A stretch of 64,000 bases of DNA, taken from the NCBI GenBank assembly GCA_965224085.1, contig CBDCYI010000005.1, positions 1,632,001 through 1,696,000 of the forward strand, in the 5' to 3' direction. The notes under the pieces are model-generated. The model was not told the DNA's origin and did no database searches. It worked only from the letters and a program-made list of their open reading frames with translations. Below are positions 32,749-42,034 of this stretch, one piece after another (the first letter of the stretch is position 1; every line of letters starts with the position of its first letter). Both the position numbers and the translations under genes were made by a program. This stretch comes from Candidatus Marinacidobacterales bacterium (lineage in GTDB: Bacteria > Acidobacteriota > Vicinamibacteria > Marinacidobacterales > SMYC01).

Positions 32749-33585
32749 ATGATGAGATTCGCGATTGCCCTTTCGTTGTTTGTCGCCGCGCCGGCTTCGG
32801 CGCAGCTGATAGCCGCCAAGGACCACACGGTCGCCATGGGTCACCACCACCTCATGGTCGAGGACGTCCAAGAAAACGTCGCGTTCTGGAAGTCGCTCGG
32901 CGGTGAGTCCGTCGCTTTCGGCACTTACGATGTGATCCGGTTTCCGAACGTTCTCATCTTTCTTCGGGAGCAAAAGCCTACAGGGGGCACGAACGGATCC
33001 GTCGTGAACCACGTGGGCCTTCAATTCCAAGAGCTCAGGCCGCTCGTGAAGCGCTTGAAGGGCGCCGGGACGCTCATCATTACCGAGGAAGTCGCAGGCG
33101 CGTCCTTCGACGTCGATGCTGACGATCTCGCCTGGAACGAGGGCGCCGGGGCTCATCTCGCGTTCGCGCGTGCGCCGAACGGGACACGCGTCGAGCTCTA
33201 CGAGAACAAGGAGCTCGGGCGGCCGGTGGCGAACCACCACATTCATTTCAACAATCCGGAGGTCGACGCGATGAAAGCGTGGTACGTCTCGAAGCTCGGC
33301 GCGAAACCGGGCCAGCGCTCCGGAATGGAAGCGGCCGACGTCGGCGGCGTGAACTTGACGTTCTCACCCGCGGACGAACAGCCCGCCGGCACCAAAGGGC
33401 GCGCTCTCGATCATATCGGCTTCGAGGTCGACGGGCTCGAGGCGCTCTGCAAGAAGCTCGAAGCGGAAGGCATCACGTTCGACCGCCCCTATCAAAAGAT
33501 CCCGGAGCTCGGCGTTGCCGTCGCCTTTTTCACGGATCCATGGGGAACGTATATCGAGCTGACCGAAGGACTCGACGAGTTATAA
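32749..33585 (+). CDS. Exported two-domain VOC/glyoxalase family protein
   Basis: Signal peptide; GHHHL, NHVG, VELYE, HHIH, DHIGF, DPWGTYIELTE. Confidence 0.88.
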   Translation: MMRFAIALSLFVAAPASAQLIAAKDHTVAMGHHHLMVEDVQENVAFWKSLGGESVAFGTYDVIRFPNVLIFLREQKPTGGTNGSVVNHVGLQFQELRPLVKRLKGAGTLIITEEVAGASFDVDADDLAWNEGAGAHLAFARAPNGTRVELYENKELGRPVANHHIHFNNPEVDAMKAWYVSKLGAKPGQRSGMEAADVGGVNLTFSPADEQPAGTKGRALDHIGFEVDGLEALCKKLEAEGITFDRPYQKIPELGVAVAFFTDPWGTYIELTEGLDEL

Positions 33586-34653
33586 AAGGCCGTGGAGCGC
33601 GCGCCTGAGAGCTAGATCGAGTTTTTCCACCAATTCGTCGAGGTGACGCTCTTCGACGTTGTACGGTGGTGCCAGAAGGACGTGGTCGCCACTTTCGCCG
33701 TTCGCCGTCCCGCCTCCTGGGTAGCAGAGTAGACCCCCGCGGAGAGCCTCGTGCCGGACGCGCGCATGCAGCTTTTGCTCTGGATCGAACGGAGCTTTCG
33801 TCGCACGATCGCGGACGAGCTCCAACGCCCAGAGTAAACCGCGCCCGCGCAACTCGCCCACGTGGGAGTGGTCACCGAAGGTAGCGTTCAATCGATCGGC
33901 GAGCCCCTCTCCCATGCGTCGCACGTTCGTCAGTAGGTGTTCGTTGAGGATGGCGCGCACGACGGCCAATCCTGCCGCGCAAGCGACCGCGTGCCCCATG
34001 TAGGTCTGGCCGTGACGAAGTTTTCCAGAGCCTTGCCGCACCGCTTCGACGACGGATTCGGAAACGATCACGGCGCCGATGGGTTGATAACCCGCGCCTA
34101 GCCCTTTGGCGATCGTGACGATGTCGGGCACGACGCCTTCCTGCTCGAACGCATAGAACGTACCCGTCCGACCCATCCCGCACAGAACCTCGTCGAGAAT
34201 GAGGAGGATCCCGTGGCGATCGCAGATGGAAGCTATCTCGCGAAAGTAGCCCGGCGCGGGAATGACCGCGCCTGTGGTCGCGCCGACGATGGTCTCGGCA
34301 ACGAACGCCGCGACCGTATGCGGCCCCGCACTCACGATGGCGCGCTCGAGCTCCAGAGCCGCCCGTTTTCCATACTGTTCCGGCGTTTCGTCTTCGCGCT
34401 GGTGGCGATACGGATAACAGGGAGGGATGAGCTCTGTTTCAACAAGCATTGGCTCGTACGGGCCGCGGCGCAGTACGTGGCCGCTGACTCCGAGTGCTCC
34501 GAGCGTATTGCCGTGATAGCTCGCGCGCCGCGCGATGAATCGTGTGCGCTCGGGCTCGCCTTTCTCGACGAAGTACTGGCGCGCCAGTTTCAATGCGGCC
34601 TCGACAGCCGCGGAGCCGCTCGAAACGAAAAGAGCGTGCGTCATGGACGCGGG
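33580..34653 (-). pseudogene. Class III PLP aminotransferase, 5'-truncated
   Basis: SYHGNTLG, LILDEVLCGMGRTG, PDIVTIAKGLG, RGRGL; N-terminal part replaced by CRTAC1 sequence. Confidence 0.85.
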
Positions 34654-35440
34654 TCTCGAAGCTCTCGCCCTTGCCGCCCGGCCAACGGACCTCGATACCC
34701 CTGAGCGTCTCGGCGCTTCCCAGGCCGAAGCCGAGCCGCGCGTCATTATGCGAGAGATAGCTGCCGCCGCTCCGCACCTCACGAAGCTTCCCGTCCACGG
34801 TGACACGCGCGCCGATCGCGTCGCGATTCCCACCACGTCCGACCAGGCGTAGCCACAGCCAGTGGTTGCCGCTATCGTTGTCGTTTCTCAAAAGGCTCGG
34901 CGGTGCGTCGAGGTTCACGATGAAGATGTCGTCGTCGCTATCGTCGTCATAGTCACCGAAAGCGACGCCGCGGCTCGAGGTCTCGCGCAGAAGGGGGCCG
35001 CCGACCTCCGCGGTGGCGTCGCGGAAGCGTCCCTCTTCGTTCAAGAAAAGCTGCTTTTTCTGGAGCCACGAAGTTCCAATAGGGGCTTCATCCACTTCGG
35101 GATAGACGTGGCCATTGGCGACGAAGAGATCGCGCCAGCCGTTGTTGTCCAGATCGACGAGCCCGACGCCCCAGCCGAGAGAAGCGATCGACGACACACC
35201 GAGACCAGCGAGGTAGGTCACGTCGATGAAGATATCCTCGGCGTTGCCCCGGTAAAGCGTATTGGTCTCGTGGGAGAAGTTGGTCACGACGACGTCGAGC
35301 CAGGAGGCGCCAACGCCGTCCCGGTTCGAGCGCACGCCCACGAGCCGGATCCCGACCCAGTGATTTTCGCGTCCCATCTCGTTCCGCGCGAGGTTGGGCT
35401 TGTCGTTATTGTTCATCAAGAGCAGATCGACATCGCCGTC
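34654..35440 (-). pseudogene. Chimera of two CRTAC1/ASPIC-UnbV (FG-GAP) gene fragments
   Basis: The segment DxDLL...N..NHW..RL.G...NRD..GA occurs twice; junction near 35304; SGGSYLS, FGLG, VRWPGG. Confidence 0.8.
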
Positions 35441-35442
35441 AA

Positions 35443-35547
35443 TGCATCACGGCGCCTGCTTCGGAGCGAAGGTCCGAATACTCGATCCAGGACGATCCCA
35501 AGCGGCTCGTCGACATCAGCAATGCTTATGACGAGGTGCTGCGCTAG
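35443..35547 (+). pseudogene. Probable 3' remnant of the gene formerly upstream of the ATP-grasp gene
   Basis: Open frame CITAPASERRSEYSIQDDPKRLVDISNAYDEVLR* ending 11 nt before the next ATG. Confidence 0.35.
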
Positions 35548-35558
35548 ACTTTCGTGAG

Positions 35559-36827
35559 ATGCCCCCTCGTGTTTTATTGTTGTTGCCGACCTCGACTTAT
35601 CGAACACACGACTTCATGGCGGCGGCAGAGCGACGGGGAGTGCTCGTCGTGGTGGCTTCGGAAGAGCCGAGCACGATGGAGCGTTTCGCGGGCGAGTCGC
35701 TTCTTACGTTGGACTTCGGCGACCCGCAAGGATCTGCGCAGAAGGTGGCTGCGTTTCACGAGAAGCACCCTCTGAGAGCGGCGATTGCTGTAGACGAAGA
35801 GACCGCTGTCGTCGCTTCGGTCATTGCCGAACGTCTCGGTTTTCCCGGCAACGCCCCCGAAGCCGCCGCGCGGGCGCGTTTGAAACATGTCATGCGGGAA
35901 GCGCTCGCGGCTGCAGGCGTTCCGGCACCAGCGCATCGCGTCTTCACGACGGATGACGACCCACGCGCCGCCGCACGCGAAGTGCGGTACCCGGCCGTCA
36001 TTAAGCCCGTCTTTTTGTCGGGAAGCCGCGGAGTGCAGCGGGTGGATGACGAGGACGCTTTCGTGCGCGCATTGGAATGGACCCGCGAGCTGCTCGCGCG
36101 GCCGGAGCTCGCGAAACGCGGCGGCGAGCACGCGAAAACGATTCTGGTCGAGGACTTCGTACCCGGCTCCGAAGTCGCTCTCGAAGCGATTTTGACTGAA
36201 GGCGAACTCACACCGCTCGCGCTCTTCGATAAACCCGATCCGCTGGACGGACCGTATTTCGAGGAAACGATCTACGTCACTCCGTCCCGCTTACCCGCCG
36301 AGACCCAAGCGAAGATCGCGAACGTGACGGCTCAGGCCGCGGCCGCGCTCGATCTGCGTCAAGGACCCATCCACGCAGAGCTGAGACTGCCGCCGGGGCC
36401 ATTGGACCCATTCGGAAAGAGCCCGTCCGTTCTCGAGATCGCGGGCCGCTCAATCGGCGGGCTGTGCTCGCGCACTCTCCGCTTCGGATTGGGACTCTCT
36501 TTGGAAGAGCTGATCCTGAAGCACGCACTCGGCCAAGACGTGACGACCGATAAACGCGAATCGAAAGCCGTCGGCGTAATGATGATCCCAATCCCAAAAC
36601 AAGGCGAGTTCATCAAGCTCGAAGGCCTAGAAGACGCCAAAGCCGTAGAGGGAATCGAGGAGGTGACGATAACCGTCCACCAAGGCGCGAATCTGATCCC
36701 GCTCCCCGAAGGCTCGACCTACCTAGGCTTCATCTTCGCAAGAGCCGAAACCCCCAAGGAAGCTGAACAAGCCCTAAGAAAGGCCCACGAAGCGCTAACG
36801 TTCCAAATCGAGACCAGGAGCAGGTAG
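35559..36827 (+). CDS. ATP-grasp domain ligase (L-amino-acid-ligase-like)
   Basis: KHVMR, YPAVIKP, SGSRGV, LVEDFVPGSE, FDKPDPLDGPYFEET, HAELR, LEIAGR. Confidence 0.9.
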   Translation: MPPRVLLLLPTSTYRTHDFMAAAERRGVLVVVASEEPSTMERFAGESLLTLDFGDPQGSAQKVAAFHEKHPLRAAIAVDEETAVVASVIAERLGFPGNAPEAAARARLKHVMREALAAAGVPAPAHRVFTTDDDPRAAAREVRYPAVIKPVFLSGSRGVQRVDDEDAFVRALEWTRELLARPELAKRGGEHAKTILVEDFVPGSEVALEAILTEGELTPLALFDKPDPLDGPYFEETIYVTPSRLPAETQAKIANVTAQAAAALDLRQGPIHAELRLPPGPLDPFGKSPSVLEIAGRSIGGLCSRTLRFGLGLSLEELILKHALGQDVTTDKRESKAVGVMMIPIPKQGEFIKLEGLEDAKAVEGIEEVTITVHQGANLIPLPEGSTYLGFIFARAETPKEAEQALRKAHEALTFQIETRSR

Positions 36828-37418
36828 CTATTTGGAAGGCGCGTAATAAGGATTGCGCCCCGAAGCGTGATCCGTCGTATCCATGATCGCGCCGATACTC
36901 GGGATCGCCTGCCGGATCGATTTCTCGACACCTTGCTTCAAGGTGACACCGGCCATGCCGCAACCCTGACACCCGCCTCCCATCTTGATGAAGAGCTCGT
37001 TCTTGCGCACGTCGATGAGCTCGACCCAACCGCCATGAGACGCCACCGCCGGGTTGATTTCTTGGTCGAGAACGGCCTGGACCTTCTTCTTTATCTCGTC
37101 CGGATCCGGTAGGGACTCGAGTGCTTTCGTCGAGACGGCGGCCTCGCCGCTTTGAAGATGGGAGCGGATAGAGGCGCCGACTTGCTTCGCGATGGGCATC
37201 CAATCGTCGCCCGCGGAGGCGGAGACGGTCACGACGCTGTCTTGGATCAGAACGGACGAAACGCCGCCGATAGCGAAGATTTTCTCAGCAAGAGGCGAGC
37301 CTGCCGCCTGCGCCGCGCCGCCGAAATACATGGAGCTGTCGGGATAGACCGGCCGGTCCACGCGAAAGTTGCAGGTTTGATTGTCTTTGGGCTCTGCTGT
37401 TATGCGAATCTCATCCAT
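36828..37418 (-). CDS. NifU/NfuA-family Fe-S carrier (Nfu_N + NifU_C)
   Basis: INPAVASHGG, GGCQGCG, TLKQGVE, DTTDHASGRNPYY. Confidence 0.9.
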   Translation of the reverse strand: MDEIRITAEPKDNQTCNFRVDRPVYPDSSMYFGGAAQAAGSPLAEKIFAIGGVSSVLIQDSVVTVSASAGDDWMPIAKQVGASIRSHLQSGEAAVSTKALESLPDPDEIKKKVQAVLDQEINPAVASHGGWVELIDVRKNELFIKMGGGCQGCGMAGVTLKQGVEKSIRQAIPSIGAIMDTTDHASGRNPYYAPSK

Positions 37419-37445
37419 GTCGTCTCCTGTCCTAGGACCGCATTA

Positions 37446-38849
37446 TTATAACGCGTGCCGCCGCTGCCTTCGTTCGAGAGGACCAAACTGGTCCTCGGTG
37501 GGCTCCGCTCAACAAAACCACGCCTCGGTGAGCCGCGGCGCCTTCGCGCTGGCAAGAAACGCGGCTTTCTGGCGGAGACCCACGCGCCCCGCCAAATTTC
37601 GGAAAATCTCTCCGTTCGGATGCCTTTTGCGAACACTGCTTTCGACCGCTGCTTCCACGTCTTTTTGGAGCTCGTCCATCGCCGGATCCGGATGCGACCA
37701 GCGATAAGTGAGCCCCGCTTTGTCGAGCTCACCGAGAAAAGGCTGCAAGCTCGTATTTTCGAGAAGGAGAGAGCCTGGCGGTATCAGAAGCCGTAATGTC
37801 AGCTGGATGGGGTCGACGTGCTCGACGAGATCCTCTTCGAGCACAAAGCGAAAAAGCTCCCGGTAGTCCTCGCGCGTGGTCCATGGCGTGAACGCGACGA
37901 ACGTGGGCCTCGGCGCGATGCCGGCCTCACGCACGGCACGTAACGCTACGCGGGCGTCGCGGCTCGAGTGGCCTTTGTCGAGCTCGGCGAGAACGCGATC
38001 GCTCAACGACTCCACCGCAGAAACGATGAACGCGCACCCCAAAGCGGCGAGCTCCGGCAACCGCTCGCGGTGCTTCAGCAGGTGCTCCACTTTCGCGGTG
38101 AAGTCGAAGGTGACGTCAGGATGTGCGCGATGAAGCGCGCGCGCCACCTCGAACGCATGGCCTGGGCCATTCAGAAAGTCGGGATCGGCGAAGTTGATAT
38201 GCCTGGCGCCAAGTGCAACGAGCTGGTCGATGTCTTCGAGTACGGTCGCCTTCGGCACAATGAAAAAGCGCCCCCCGTAAACGGGCGGAATAGGGCAGTG
38301 CCGGCACGAGTGAAGGCAACCGCGACTCGTCTCGACCGTTCCCACTCTTCGATGTGAGCCGTCGGGAAGCTCGAGGTGAACATATTGCTCGAGCGGCGGC
38401 AGCCCTTCTCGATGGGGCACCGGATAATCGAGCCTGTCGAGCACGGGTGGTGGCGCTTTGGTCCCGAGAGCCCCGAGGAGCCCAAACAGCTGGACACGCT
38501 CCACGAGCGCGTTTTCGCACTCGCCACTAAAAACGCTGTCAACGCCGGCGGACATCAACATCTCTGCGTTCAGGGTCGCGTAAAGGCCGAAGAAGCAGAG
38601 ATGAGCGCCTGGGTTCACCTCCTGGACCCGTTCCGCCACACGCATGCCCAGCCGCAATGCCGTGTGCATCGGAACGGACACTGCGATGAAATCCGCGCGC
38701 GCGATGGCGCTCTCGTCGAGCGATTCAACGCCCAGATCGAGGCTCTCGGCCGAATATCCAGCTCTATTCAAATAGGCGAGGGGGTTTGCAAGCCCGAGAG
38801 GCTGGCGCCCGAGCTCGTAGCAAGAGATCAGTAAGACGTTCGGACGCAT
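37446..38849 (-). CDS. CUAEP-tail B12-binding radical SAM selenoprotein (Sec at UGA 37509-37511)
   Basis: LISCYELGRQP, CxxxCxxC (CLHSCRHC), DPDFLNGP; tail WF-C-[UGA]-AEPTEDQF...HAL-TAA; SECIS-like hairpin. Confidence 0.9.
37478..37496 (-). promoter_or_regulatory. Bacterial SECIS element
   Basis: GAGGACCA-GUU-UGGUCCUC perfect 8-bp stem with G-first loop, 12 nt 3' of the UGA. Confidence 0.85.
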
Positions 38850-38940: not shown

Positions 38941-41097
38941 TTGCGAACCACGGCGTCTTTCTCGAGCGTGCTACATCGCTCATGGCTACTATGGGCACTC
39001 CTCGCCGCGGCGCCTTCGACGCTCGCGCAACCTGCGAGCGAGCTGACGCTACTCGCGGAACAACAGCAACAGCTCGCAGACGGGCACGTCCGAGCCGAAG
39101 GCTACGTCTCCATCCGGCTCGGCAACACCCACATCACCGCGGACACCGTCGACTTCTGGCCGGGCGAGCTTCGCGTCGTTGCGGAAGGCAACGTCGTATT
39201 CCAACAGGGCGACCAAAAGATCGTCGCGACTCGGCTCGAGGCCGAGCTCGACGGACAGACCGGGCGTTTCTTCAACGCTTATGGGATGGCTGGGCGCGAC
39301 TTGTACTTCTACGGCGATGTCATCGAGAAAGAGTCCGAAGATGTTTATGTGATCGAAGGCGGCGCTTTTACTTCGTGCTCTCAGCCGACGCCCCGTTGGC
39401 GTTTCACCGCGGGTAAAGCGCGGGTGCGGCGCGACCACCATGTCGCCCTCCGTCACGCGCTCTTGCGGGTGAAATGGCTGCCCGTGTTCTACATGCCGTT
39501 GCTCGTCTACCCCATCAACGAAGACGGCCGCGCGACCGGCTTTCTCATGCCGCAGATCGGCAACTCCACTCTAAAGGGTTTCATGTTCAATCAAGCTTTC
39601 TTCTGGGCGATCAACCGATCGATGGACGCGACGTTTACCTTCGAGCGTTTTTCCGAGATCGGCAATGGCGGCTCGATACAATATCGCTACCTTCAATCTC
39701 ACACGTCGCGCAGCCAGGCCGATACCTTTTTTATCAAGAACACCGCGGAAGGAAACCAAGAATATACGATCCGAGCGAGTGCGAACCAGGAACTGCCCGG
39801 CAACTTCACCGCGGTAGCGCGCGTCGACTTTTTCAGCAGCTTCGATTTCCAGCAATCGTTTCAGGAGAACTACAACCGCGCCACCCAGCGCAAGAAGCGA
39901 GCCCGCGGTAGCATCTCGAACAGCTGGAGGCAATACAGCCTGCGCGTCAACTTCGACCGCAACGATACGTCGTTCGGCGAGCGTGTCGCGGTCCGAAAGG
40001 TGCTTCCCCAAATCACCTTCAACTCGCGCCCGAGCCCCATTTTCAACACCCCGATCTTGTTCGCGTTCAAGTCGGAAGCCGCGTCGCTCGCACGAACGAC
40101 ACGCGGCGAGCTTTTCGAATATGAACGATTCGACATCGTGCCGACGGTCGCCTATCCCTTTACCGGCCTCAGCTACTTGACGCTGCGAGCGAGCGTCACC
40201 GGCCGATTCACGCACTACACGTCGTCTCTCGAAAGACGCACGCTCGTCGACGAGGCTGTGAATCGCAAATATTTCGAGACCCGCTTCGACATCCGGGGGC
40301 CGACTTTCGCCAGGATCTTCAATACGCCCGATAACTTCTACGCGGCCCGCTACAAGCATGTCGTCGAGCCTCAGATCGTATGGAGCCGGCGCTCGCTCGT
40401 GGATAACTTCGCCCAGGTCCCGAAATTCGACGGCCAGGATTACGTTCCGGGTACGAATCAAGTGTCTCTCTCGATCGTCAACCGGGTCCTGGCGAAGCGC
40501 TTGGTCGACGGGGAGGAACAACAGACCGCGACTGAAATGCTTACATGGAACGTCTCCCAGCGCTATTTCTTCGACATCAACGCTTCGCTCTACGACCGGC
40601 AATTTTCCACGCCCTATTTCTCGGAAGACGGGACGCCGAGCAACCGCTCGCCTATCACGTCGAGGGTGAACTTCCGGCCTTCGAGAAATCTCGCCGCGAG
40701 CTGGAACTTCGACTACGACCTCAATTTCAACGCGATCCGCTCTTCGAGCACATCGGCGTCCTATGGTGGTCGCTGGGGTTTGGTTCGGGGGCTCTGGACT
40801 CGGCGCAACATTCCCGACCGCGACGTGACGCGCAGTAACTTTCGACTCGGCACCCAGCTCAACGTGGCTCGCGGTCTCCAAGTGAACTTCGATACAGCCT
40901 TCGACGCCACGAACAAAGTGGTGAACAACGTGCGGGCCGGCGCGGTCTACAACGTTCAGTGCTGCGGCTTCATGGTTAGTTTCAACCGTTTCAACTTCGT
41001 CAGCCGCGTGGAGAACATATTCCGGTTCGGGATAACACTCGCGAATATCGGAAGCTTCGGCACTTCCCTCGGAGGCTCGGGGCGGCGATCTTATTAA
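38941..41097 (+). CDS. lptD: LPS-assembly outer membrane protein LptD
   Basis: OstA-like N-terminus, FTSC..PTPRW, TGFLMPQIG, FFWAINRSMDAT, KHVVEP, YNVQCCG. Confidence 0.88.
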   Translation: MRTTASFSSVLHRSWLLWALLAAAPSTLAQPASELTLLAEQQQQLADGHVRAEGYVSIRLGNTHITADTVDFWPGELRVVAEGNVVFQQGDQKIVATRLEAELDGQTGRFFNAYGMAGRDLYFYGDVIEKESEDVYVIEGGAFTSCSQPTPRWRFTAGKARVRRDHHVALRHALLRVKWLPVFYMPLLVYPINEDGRATGFLMPQIGNSTLKGFMFNQAFFWAINRSMDATFTFERFSEIGNGGSIQYRYLQSHTSRSQADTFFIKNTAEGNQEYTIRASANQELPGNFTAVARVDFFSSFDFQQSFQENYNRATQRKKRARGSISNSWRQYSLRVNFDRNDTSFGERVAVRKVLPQITFNSRPSPIFNTPILFAFKSEAASLARTTRGELFEYERFDIVPTVAYPFTGLSYLTLRASVTGRFTHYTSSLERRTLVDEAVNRKYFETRFDIRGPTFARIFNTPDNFYAARYKHVVEPQIVWSRRSLVDNFAQVPKFDGQDYVPGTNQVSLSIVNRVLAKRLVDGEEQQTATEMLTWNVSQRYFFDINASLYDRQFSTPYFSEDGTPSNRSPITSRVNFRPSRNLAASWNFDYDLNFNAIRSSSTSASYGGRWGLVRGLWTRRNIPDRDVTRSNFRLGTQLNVARGLQVNFDTAFDATNKVVNNVRAGAVYNVQCCGFMVSFNRFNFVSRVENIFRFGITLANIGSFGTSLGGSGRRSY

Positions 41098-41191: not shown

Positions 41192-42034
41192 TTGAAGATT
41201 TTGATTACCGGGAGCGGTGGGCTTCTTGGTCGTTGTGTCTCGTCGGTGGCGGCCGCGCGGCATGAGGTTCTTGCGCTCTCGCGCGCGGATCTCGACGTTA
41301 CGGACCGGGCCGCGGTGGGCCGTGCCGTCAGGCGGTTTCTGCCCCAGGCCGTGTTACACTGCGCCGCTTATACCGATGTGGATGGTGCCGAGCGACACTC
41401 GGAGCTGGCCATGGAGGTGAATGCGGCCGGCGCCGAGTGGGTGGCGAAAGCTGCGTATCATGAAGGCGCCGCCATGGTTTCGGTGAGCACGGACTATGTT
41501 TTCGACGGCGAGAGACGCACACCCTATGAAGAGACGGCGCCGACCTGCCCGCTCTCGAGTTATGGTCGAACCAAGCTCGAAGGAGAGCGACGCGTCGCAC
41601 AAGCTTGCCCTGATGGCTGGCTTACGGTCCGGACGGGTTGGGTGTACGGGCCTTCCAAGGGTTTCGTGGACTGGGCTAAGAAGCGCCTCGTGGCTTCGGC
41701 AGAGCTTCCGCTCATCGAGGACCAGACAGGCTCACCGACCTACGCGCTCGAGCTGGCGGAGGCACTTCTCGCTCTCGTCGAAGGTGAGCATCGAGGGCTC
41801 TTTCACTTCGTGAACCGCGGAGAGACGACATGGGTTACGCTCGGACGTTTTCTCGCGAGCGAGCTCGGCGTCCACGAGCCCCGGGTGAAAACCATCTTGA
41901 GCGAAGCGCTCGGCCGGCCGGCACCGAGGCCGGCCTATTCGGCGATGTCAGTCGGAAAATTCGAAGACGCGACCGGGATCCACGTGCGAACTTGGCAGAA
42001 CGCTTTGAAACGCTATCTGGCAGATAGCCGATAG
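41192..42034 (+). CDS. rfbD: dTDP-4-dehydrorhamnose reductase
   Basis: TGSGGLLG, AAYTDVDGAE, STDYVFDG, YGRTK, GSPT, APRPAYS. Confidence 0.92.
   Translation: MKILITGSGGLLGRCVSSVAAARHEVLALSRADLDVTDRAAVGRAVRRFLPQAVLHCAAYTDVDGAERHSELAMEVNAAGAEWVAKAAYHEGAAMVSVSTDYVFDGERRTPYEETAPTCPLSSYGRTKLEGERRVAQACPDGWLTVRTGWVYGPSKGFVDWAKKRLVASAELPLIEDQTGSPTYALELAEALLALVEGEHRGLFHFVNRGETTWVTLGRFLASELGVHEPRVKTILSEALGRPAPRPAYSAMSVGKFEDATGIHVRTWQNALKRYLADSR

Follow-up and report, generated by a model that had tools for sequence, protein, structure and literature searches.

A radical SAM selenoprotein family and its ATP-grasp ligase partner: a probable biosynthetic module with interchangeable iron proteins

Introduction

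ArsL, a radical S-adenosylmethionine (SAM) enzyme, is the closest characterised relative of the protein at the centre of this study. In an assay with SAM and dithionite, ArsL cleaves SAM to 5'-methylthioadenosine (MTA) and a 3-amino-3-carboxypropyl (ACP) radical, with no cobalamin mentioned in the available part of the report, which also describes an RCCLKC tail that binds arsenite (10.1101/2024.02.01.577332). According to the accessible portion of a second report, all three Cys residues of this tail bind arsenic, and ArsL is an outlier, the only radical SAM enzyme of canonical fold that makes an ACP radical (10.64898/2026.04.29.721666). Here we examine a related family, starting from a 64,000-nucleotide stretch of the genome of a Candidatus Marinacidobacterales bacterium (contig CBDCYI010000005.1, positions 1,632,001 to 1,696,000; hereafter the window), in which the gene for a CUAEP-tail radical SAM selenoprotein lies beside genes for an Nfu-type iron–sulfur (Fe–S) cluster carrier and an ATP-grasp ligase.

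Among L-amino acid ligases, BL00235 makes Met-Gly and Met-Met, as listed in a review (PMC6920838, Table 2). The family model that recognises the radical SAM protein of the window, NF040546 (CUAEP/CCAEP-tail radical SAM (seleno)protein), is listed as uncharacterised in the available part of a paper that remarks on the rarity of Cys-Sec motifs and proposes that they interact with a heavy-metal atom (10.1101/2022.07.06.499078).

The original prediction, made from the DNA alone, read the three genes as a dedicated module in which Nfu supplies or rebuilds a cluster, the radical SAM protein performs cobalamin-dependent chemistry and the ligase forms an amide. We find that the radical SAM protein and the ligase, which is of the L-amino-acid-ligase type, probably form the core of a conserved, uncharacterised biosynthetic module that often has an iron or Fe–S protein beside it. 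The cobalamin-dependent chemistry and the dedicated role of Nfu fared less well.

Results

Conservation of the radical SAM–ligase pair

A search with the radical SAM profile, using one genome per species, returned 560 related stretches, from which 80 loci were retained. Judging from the titles of their records, these loci belong to Acidobacteriota, Methylomirabilota/Rokubacteria, Gemmatimonadota, Planctomycetota, Nitrospirota, Poribacteria, Chloroflexota and other phyla. When the 80 loci were searched by tblastn with the window proteins, the ligase was found beside the radical SAM gene in 35, Nfu in 37, and a DUF169 gene, placed after the radical SAM gene, in 13. For the 43 loci with 3 kb or more of sequence to either side of the radical SAM gene, the numbers were 24 with Nfu, 21 with the ligase, 20 with both and 27 with any partner. 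At least four gene orders occur. Three of these are a co-directional radical SAM–Nfu–ligase series (16 loci, 4 of them also with DUF169), a radical SAM–Nfu pair with a convergent ligase as in the window (6 loci), and a ligase–radical SAM–Nfu series (6 loci).

We then counted both genes in a sample of 401 genomes from the phylum of the window. On the ligase profile, orthologues (at least 356 bits) and paralogues (at most 161 bits) formed two clear peaks, and the ligase was called present at 356 bits or more (81 genomes). NF040546 gave matches in 71 genomes, 68 of them over the cut-off and 61 with an in-frame TGA. Both genes were present in 68 genomes, the ligase only in 13, the radical SAM gene only in 3, and neither in 317. 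Among the 68 pairs, 40 lay within 5 kb, 7 were farther apart on the same contig (up to 4.2 Mb), and 21 were on different contigs. The 13 ligase-only genomes include one, G024, that carries an unpublished flag. Five ligase-only genomes, 97-99% complete, were searched again at E ≤ 1e-5, and the radical SAM gene was not found in them (best hit 62 bits). A second phylum, that of a Gemmatimonadales record (G404), was sampled with 151 genomes, in which the ligase was present in 25 and the radical SAM gene in 11; both genes were found in 11, the ligase only in 14 and the radical SAM gene only in none, and the two were adjacent in 0 of the 11.

Over both phyla, 79 of the 82 genomes that bear the radical SAM gene also hold the ligase. 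The link is asymmetric, in that a radical SAM gene without the ligase is very rare, whereas the ligase is also found by itself. The two genes co-occur, frequently as neighbours, across several phyla and in various gene orders. The ATP-grasp orthologues keep company with CUAEP/CCAEP radical SAM genes elsewhere, both by neighbourhood and by genome profiling, and this was the association on which the original prediction had staked its case. It had also taken the intactness of the three genes next to shattered DNA as a sign of selection; that is a weak argument, and the conservation across phyla is the real evidence.

The adjacency could in principle reflect nothing more than inherited gene order and a general need for an Fe–S carrier, with no shared pathway. 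The LptD and RmlD genes next to the module are also syntenic in the closest relatives, the ligase and Nfu genes are convergent in the window, and the ligase is found without the radical SAM gene in 27 sampled genomes, all of which fit this explanation. However, the genes are found in several different orders across phyla, co-directional operons among them; the co-occurrence persists where the genes are unlinked and extends to 79 of the 82 genomes with the radical SAM gene; and an ATP-grasp gene also accompanies ArsL, the sister family. We therefore consider the absence of a shared pathway highly improbable.

The radical SAM gene encodes a putative selenoprotein

The radical SAM gene occupies 37446-38849 on the minus strand of the window. 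It reads MRPNVLL... from 38849, meets an in-frame TGA at 37509-37511 and, with this codon read as selenocysteine (U), continues WFC-U-AEPTEDQFGPLERRQRRHAL to a TAA stop at 37446-37448, which gives a protein of 467 amino acids including Sec447. This protein scored 621.5 bits on NF040546 (cut-off 500), with residues 5-456 covering model positions 1-467 of 468. In a scan of the whole genome the score was 614.9 bits, and a single copy was present. Its closest relatives in the public scan, from records titled Acidobacteria bacterium, are 87-88% identical. The family is large: among 8000 candidates scored, at least 7994 protein clusters matched at E ≤ 1e-20, a number that may include ArsL-type or more distant relatives.

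The C-terminal motif of the window protein, WFC-U-AEPTEDQ, recurs in the readable tails of related loci. There were 73 such tails (72 of the 80 loci, and the window), with TGA at the key position in 57 and TGC or TGT in 16, and the AEPTxxQ peptide that follows the TGA is conserved among them. Beyond the UGA of the window, which would be read as the Sec of WFC-U-AEPT, lies a hairpin resembling a selenocysteine insertion sequence (SECIS), GAGGACC-AGUUU-GGUCCUC, at 37478-37496 on the minus strand, beginning 15 nt past the UGA. A hairpin of at least 5 consecutive pairs was found at the same place in 53 of the 57 TGA-bearing sequences versus 0 of the 16 with a Cys codon, with pairs counted by script in both loop registers (4- and 5-nt loops). 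Compensatory exchanges are seen in the stem (CG/UA, 44/11; GC/AU, 38/14), which closes on an AGUU(N) loop. Ungapped RNAalifold on the 57 sequences recovered only 4 pairs, because the 4-nt and 5-nt loops shift the register. An Rfam scan around the UGA found no SECIS family and gave two chance-level matches only, and the 76-nt stretch alone was unremarkable in its minimum free energy (z-score -1.03). The comparative hairpin test therefore carries the SECIS argument.

The genome also contains tRNA-Sec, SelB (364.9 bits) and SelD (279.6 bits). Since the NF040546 score, the conserved peptide after the TGA, the covarying hairpin confined to TGA-bearing sequences and the presence of tRNA-Sec, SelB and SelD all agree, the read-through assumed in the original prediction is well supported, and on sequence grounds the protein can be regarded as a selenoprotein with a Cys-Sec dipeptide near its C-terminus. 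The SelD match lies outside the window, at contig positions 1545162-1546073, within an open frame of 774 amino acids, which raises the possibility of a fusion of SelD with a further domain.

Among plasmids, tblastn detected 36 genes of the ArsL type and a single CUAEP gene, the latter on the megaplasmid of Thermomicrobium roseum DSM 5159 (NC_011961.1; L128, 7935-9440). The coding sequence in the T. roseum record ends early at the selenocysteine: it stops just before a TGA codon, after which come AEP and the hairpin. T. roseum DSM 5159 offers a cultured carrier of the radical SAM gene for bench work. Its CUAEP gene is flanked by a pyridoxal-phosphate-dependent aminotransferase and a major facilitator superfamily (MFS) transporter, and an ATP-grasp orthologue was not found on the megaplasmid, which the search covered, as distinct from the chromosome.

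Relationship to ArsL and to cobalamin-dependent enzymes

The second-best family for the radical SAM protein is ArsL (NF040542), at 315.6 bits and under the 450-bit cut-off, and all models of B12-dependent radical SAM methylases scored below 50 bits. CUAEP and ArsL proteins can be aligned over their whole length (33-38% identity), with the CC of the ArsL tail opposite C-U. The radical SAM motif CxxxCxxC (C178/C182/C185; PF04055, 54.3 bits) is invariant in the family alignment. Cys10 and Cys272 are also invariant in the CUAEP family and are never Cys in the aligned ArsL sequences, and Cys85 is variable in ArsL. We rejected membership of ArsL itself: the protein is below the cut-off and has no RCCLKC tail, and no ars context (arsM, arsQ, arsN1 or an aquaporin) was seen among the nine open reading frames scanned around it.

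An AlphaFold2 model of the protein had a mean predicted local distance difference test score of 89.3, falling to about 74 in the tail region. In this model Cys10 and Cys85 are predicted to lie at the C-terminal ends of strands 5-9 and 83-87 of a Rossmann-like N-terminal domain. The top Foldseek neighbour of the model was AprD4, followed by OxsB, TsrM and MgmA and then by the methylthiotransferases MiaB, RimO and MtaB, with TokK and CysS also present. A sequence search of the PDB with the radical SAM protein found no close structure; the best match reached only 39 bits, and so no ArsL structure was available for comparison.

These results bear on whether the enzyme is a class-B, cobalamin-dependent radical SAM protein, in which a 5'-deoxyadenosyl radical would methylate or rearrange a substrate before the ligase forms an amide. 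The N-terminal domain matches the B12-binding family PF02310 weakly (36.7 bits, cut-off 32.1), B12-dependent radical SAM methylases in NCBIfam give weak matches of 40-49 bits, and the cobalamin enzymes OxsB, TsrM, MgmA, TokK and CysS are among the Foldseek neighbours. ArsL carries the same PF02310 domain, at 29.4 bits. However, the top Foldseek neighbour is the diol dehydratase AprD4, which is not known to need cobalamin. In addition, no cobalamin genes recurred beside the radical SAM gene in the neighbourhood clusterings, and the full-length match to ArsL (315.6 bits) is far stronger, ArsL yielding MTA with SAM and dithionite in the available account (10.1101/2024.02.01.577332). The cobalamin-dependent chemistry of the original prediction has only the weak PF02310 match as its basis, and with ArsL as the closest characterised relative we think it unlikely.

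ATP-grasp genes were present in ArsL islands on plasmids of Priestia, B. cereus, Alicyclobacillus and Pantoea (L129, L130, L131 and L133), together with arsM, arsN1, an aquaporin, a CobW-like GTPase, an MFS transporter and a carboxymuconolactone-decarboxylase-family gene. The ATP-grasp of the Alicyclobacillus island is homologous to the window ligase over 358 columns (hhalign 99.4%, 24% identity), and those of the Priestia and Pantoea islands are 21-24% identical to it (BLASTP). The arsQ–arsL–arsM cluster of P. amygdali contains no ATP-grasp gene. The ATP-grasp of the ArsL islands suggests a peptide form of arsinothricin, and a literature search on arsinothricin with ATP-grasp found no paper making that link; the one paper that mentions both leaves them unconnected.

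The ligase is of the L-amino-acid-ligase type

The ligase gene (35559-36827, plus strand; open reading frame of 422 amino acids) has the Pfam domains ATP-grasp_4 (PF13535, 92.3 bits), LAL_C2 (PF18603, 61.7 bits) and ATPgrasp_N (PF18130, 33.6 bits). Among solved structures, it is best matched by 3VOT, that of the L-amino acid ligase BL00235, over its full length (E 2.5e-66), and it also gives a full-length profile match to BacD (E 2e-30). It is below every NCBIfam equivalog cut-off. By its domains and relatives, the protein is classified as an ATP-grasp enzyme of the L-amino-acid-ligase type.

Nfu and other iron proteins are interchangeable neighbours

The Nfu gene (36828-37418, minus strand; open reading frame of 196 amino acids) matches the NifU domain PF01106 (75.9 bits) and the Nfu_N domain PF08712 (52 bits), with the CQGC motif within GGGCQGCG in its translation. 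It misses the NfuA equivalogs (TIGR03341/NF008392; 88.9 against 269.35 bits on one model and 72.2 against 268 on the other), matching in the C-terminal domain only. It is the only match to PF01106 in the whole genome. In the phylum sample, 281 of the 401 genomes have NifU domains, whether the module is present or absent.

For at least 12 genomes with both the radical SAM gene and the ligase, no NifU hit is listed, and in these YggX adjoins the ligase (PF04362; NF003817, 117.5 bits against a cut-off of 74). Neighbours were counted in 66 ligase-bearing loci, made up of 33 of the 80 scan loci and 33 of 40 loci that were hand-picked, and hence non-random, from the phylum sample. Within 2.5 kb of the ligase, Nfu was found in 40 of the 66 and YggX in 16, and where the radical SAM gene is unlinked or missing, Nfu or YggX still stands beside the ligase. 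YggX also lies directly upstream of the radical SAM gene in loci from three further lineages (Gemmatimonadota, Chloroflexia and Ktedonobacteraceae). YggX was not found in the genome of the window. In some lineages Nfu consists of the C-terminal domain alone, or is replaced by YggX or DUF169; the literature on DUF169 held passing mentions only.

The pairings of radical SAM protein with ligase, of radical SAM protein with iron protein, and of ligase with iron protein all recur, and the iron or Fe–S protein is interchangeable. A dedicated Nfu is rejected: it is the sole NifU-domain gene of its genome, NifU domains are spread through the phylum independently of the module, and YggX or DUF169 substitutes elsewhere. 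Nfu is the general, and only, NifU-type carrier of this genome and a facultative neighbour of the module. The supply or repair of clusters that the original prediction assigned to it still fits its frequent place in the cluster.

The iron proteins raise the question of whether the radical SAM protein inserts S or Se in the manner of a methylthiotransferase, with a putative sacrificial auxiliary Fe–S cluster on Cys10/Cys85 plus Cys272 or the tail that Nfu or YggX would rebuild, a scheme that could be combined with ACP transfer. Its neighbours Nfu, YggX and DUF169 are Fe–S or iron proteins; Cys10 and Cys272 are invariant here and are not Cys in the aligned ArsL sequences, and Cys85 varies in ArsL; Cys10 and Cys85 are placed by the model at strand ends of the Rossmann-like domain; and MiaB, RimO and MtaB are among the model's structural neighbours. 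E. coli NfuA serves LipA and MiaB. However, only 2 of the 3 Cys positions resemble the methylthiotransferase pattern, and the module is found without a NifU hit in at least 12 genomes and without YggX in that of the window. The helper is thus interchangeable, and any Fe–S enzyme might be its client. We regard S/Se insertion as possible but rather unlikely.

Alternatively, the pair might modify a protein or peptide, the ATP-grasp enzyme adding residues to Nfu, YggX or a similar target, as RimK and LysX do, and the radical SAM protein modifying the same target. The ligase is beside Nfu or YggX even where the radical SAM gene is distant or missing (L108-L112, L114, L116, L118, L120, L124 and L134), which speaks for this reading. 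Yet the ligase has the architecture of an L-amino acid ligase, including LAL_C2, and its best solved relative acts on free amino acids; in the window and many relatives the ligase gene runs towards the Nfu gene, which excludes co-transcription; and no short open reading frame recurred in the clusterings, which took in frames of at least 80 or 90 amino acids, a range above that of a small precursor peptide. Modification of such a target therefore seems very unlikely.

Several other genes accompany the module in some loci. A Na+/solute symporter (PF00474, with weak PutP/PanF-like matches) is co-directional with and directly upstream of the radical SAM gene in 5 loci (L089, L095, L096, L126 and L127), and the same type of symporter is upstream of the ligase in 1 locus (L116); this neighbour is a hint that a substrate is imported. 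Six loci of the Blastocatellia type have an Atg22-like MFS transporter. In 8 loci (L088, L089, L090, L095, L097, L116, L126 and L127), a molybdopterin oxidoreductase of about 690 amino acids with an N-terminal 4Fe-4S domain lies beside YggX on the far side of the ligase, with a CofD-family gene recurrent nearby.

Layout of the locus and its flanking DNA

The host genome measures 6.87 Mb in 12 contigs. On re-reading the window, the coordinates of the original prediction were all correct, as were the 27 nt between the radical SAM stop and the Nfu start codon (37419-37445, minus strand, from sequence) and the stop codons of the convergent ligase and Nfu genes, which abut at 36827/36828. The radical SAM and Nfu genes, on the same strand, are probably carried on a single transcript. 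All three genes are full length, again as predicted: the radical SAM protein spans positions 1-467 of 468 of NF040546, the ligase spans 2-411 of 413 of its orthologue profile, and Nfu has both domains.

The DNA upstream of the ligase had been described as shattered, with an open remnant of a lost fourth gene. At 33580-35419 (minus strand) we did find two truncated genes that meet. One, a class-III aminotransferase matched only at positions 80-440 of the 444 of model NF005685, overlaps the 3' part of an ASPIC/UnbV and FG-GAP fragment, which has an open frame of 335 amino acids where most paralogues have 530-1210. The junction may mark a rearrangement or may have arisen in the assembly.

The claimed remnant, CITAPAS...NAYDEVLR, was not confirmed. 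It is the end of a stop-free stretch of 105 codons (35230-35544) that is mostly antisense to the ASPIC fragment, and 253 of the 2816 stop-free stretches in the six frames of the window are at least as long. By tblastn it had no match in the genome (best E 0.43) or in 123 loci (best E 0.35), and in the two closest relatives the sequence similarity ends about 20 nt upstream of the ligase ATG. With an ordinary length, no similar sequence by tblastn and no conservation in the nearest relatives, the stretch lends no support to a lost fourth gene.

On the other side, an LptD-like gene (38941-41097, plus strand) and an RmlD gene (41192-42034, plus strand) are divergent from the radical SAM gene. This gene order is common only to the closest relatives (4-6 loci) and is outside the module.

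Discussion

The co-occurrence of the radical SAM protein with an amino-acid ligase and iron–sulfur helpers, kept together in several phyla, points to an undescribed small-molecule pathway. What might it make? Tentatively, and by analogy with ArsL, we suggest transfer of an ACP group followed by ligation. The radical SAM protein would cleave SAM at the C-gamma–S bond, as ArsL does, and the resulting ACP radical would be joined to a soft atom (S, Se, a metalloid or a metal) held by the Cys-Sec dipeptide, perhaps with the help of Cys10, Cys85 or Cys272. The product would be a methionine-like 2-amino-4-X-butanoate, which the ligase would condense into a dipeptide or amide; alternatively, the ligase might make the acceptor and the radical SAM protein then modify it. 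Nfu or YggX may load or repair the Fe–S cluster or clusters of the enzyme. An ACP-derived amino acid would be an analogue of methionine, and BL00235 makes Met-Gly and Met-Met; the leads from ArsL and from the ligase, both of them analogies, therefore agree.

A number of observations weigh against the module or against its ArsL-like chemistry. None of the ligase, Nfu and DUF169 was found in 33 of the 80 loci, many of which are on short contigs. The ligase occurs without the radical SAM gene in 13 of 81 ligase-bearing genomes in one phylum and in 14 of 25 in the other, and therefore cannot depend on the radical SAM product alone. The genomes counted are related rather than independent, so that Fisher values overstate the association and are given no weight here. 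As to the chemistry, no sequence features that separate ACP-type from 5'-deoxyadenosyl-type cleavage of SAM were found in the radical SAM protein. It fails the cut-off of the ArsL model, the third Cys of the ArsL tail has no counterpart in the CUAEP tail, and CUAEP proteins have about 50 extra residues before the tail and additional invariant Cys residues; hence a different substrate, and perhaps a different reaction. There was no ars gene among the nine open reading frames scanned around the window module, and no ars-like cluster among the annotated neighbourhood clusters of its relatives, most of the smaller clusters being unannotated. The ATP-grasps of the ArsL islands share only 21-24% identity with the window ligase, and three of the four islands bearing them are in Bacillales and may have one shared origin. 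Finally, our searches found no biochemistry for any member of NF040546, and a full-text literature search on CUAEP/CCAEP found a single relevant paper naming the family, the available part of which calls it uncharacterised (10.1101/2022.07.06.499078).

At its most far-reaching, ArsL-like transfer would make the CUAEP proteins a sister family of ArsL that forges C–S, C–Se or C–metalloid bonds. With the ligase they would produce a novel dipeptide resembling methionine or homocysteine, which might be a thiol or selenol of low molecular weight, tied to Fe–S or iron homeostasis in Acidobacteriota, Gemmatimonadota, Methylomirabilota, Nitrospirota, Planctomycetota and Chloroflexota. We offer this as a speculation that is doubtful as a whole.

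The CUAEP family is much larger than ArsL, extends through many uncultured phyla of soil and water, consists mostly of selenoproteins, and is curated yet uncharacterised. What is new here is its fixed partner ligase and its iron-handling neighbours, together with the finding that ArsL itself is often accompanied by a homologous ligase, which suggests that amino acids of the arsinothricin type may be incorporated into peptides. An orphan family thus becomes a testable two-enzyme pathway.

How does the locus compare with known systems? The ligase shares the domain set ATPgrasp_N, ATP-grasp_4 and LAL_C2 with the L-amino acid ligases BL00235 (3VOT), BacD and RizA, but forms a separate orthologue group tied to the CUAEP radical SAM protein and to Nfu or YggX. 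The window Nfu resembles the NFU1/NfuA-type carriers that serve radical SAM clients in its NifU C-terminal CxxC and its Nfu_N domain, with its gene directly downstream of the radical SAM gene, but it lies outside the E. coli NfuA equivalog and is the sole NifU-domain gene of its genome. The vicinal Cys-Sec dipeptide is shared with HgcA, MerT variants and SAO-locus proteins (Haft 2022; 10.1101/2022.07.06.499078), selenoproteins that have another fold and belong to another enzyme class. The likeness to ArsL (NF040542) is the most extensive: the two families are colinear over their whole length, with an N-terminal Rossmann-like domain and the CxxxCxxC core in common, each ends in a Cys-rich tail in which the first two Cys of ArsL align with Cys-Sec, and each frequently has an ATP-grasp neighbour of the same architecture. 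The window family differs in its C-U/C-C-AEPTxxQ tail in place of RCCLKC, in its selenocysteine, Cys10, Cys272 and insert of about 50 residues, and in having Nfu, YggX or DUF169 rather than arsM, arsQ, arsN or an aquaporin as neighbours.

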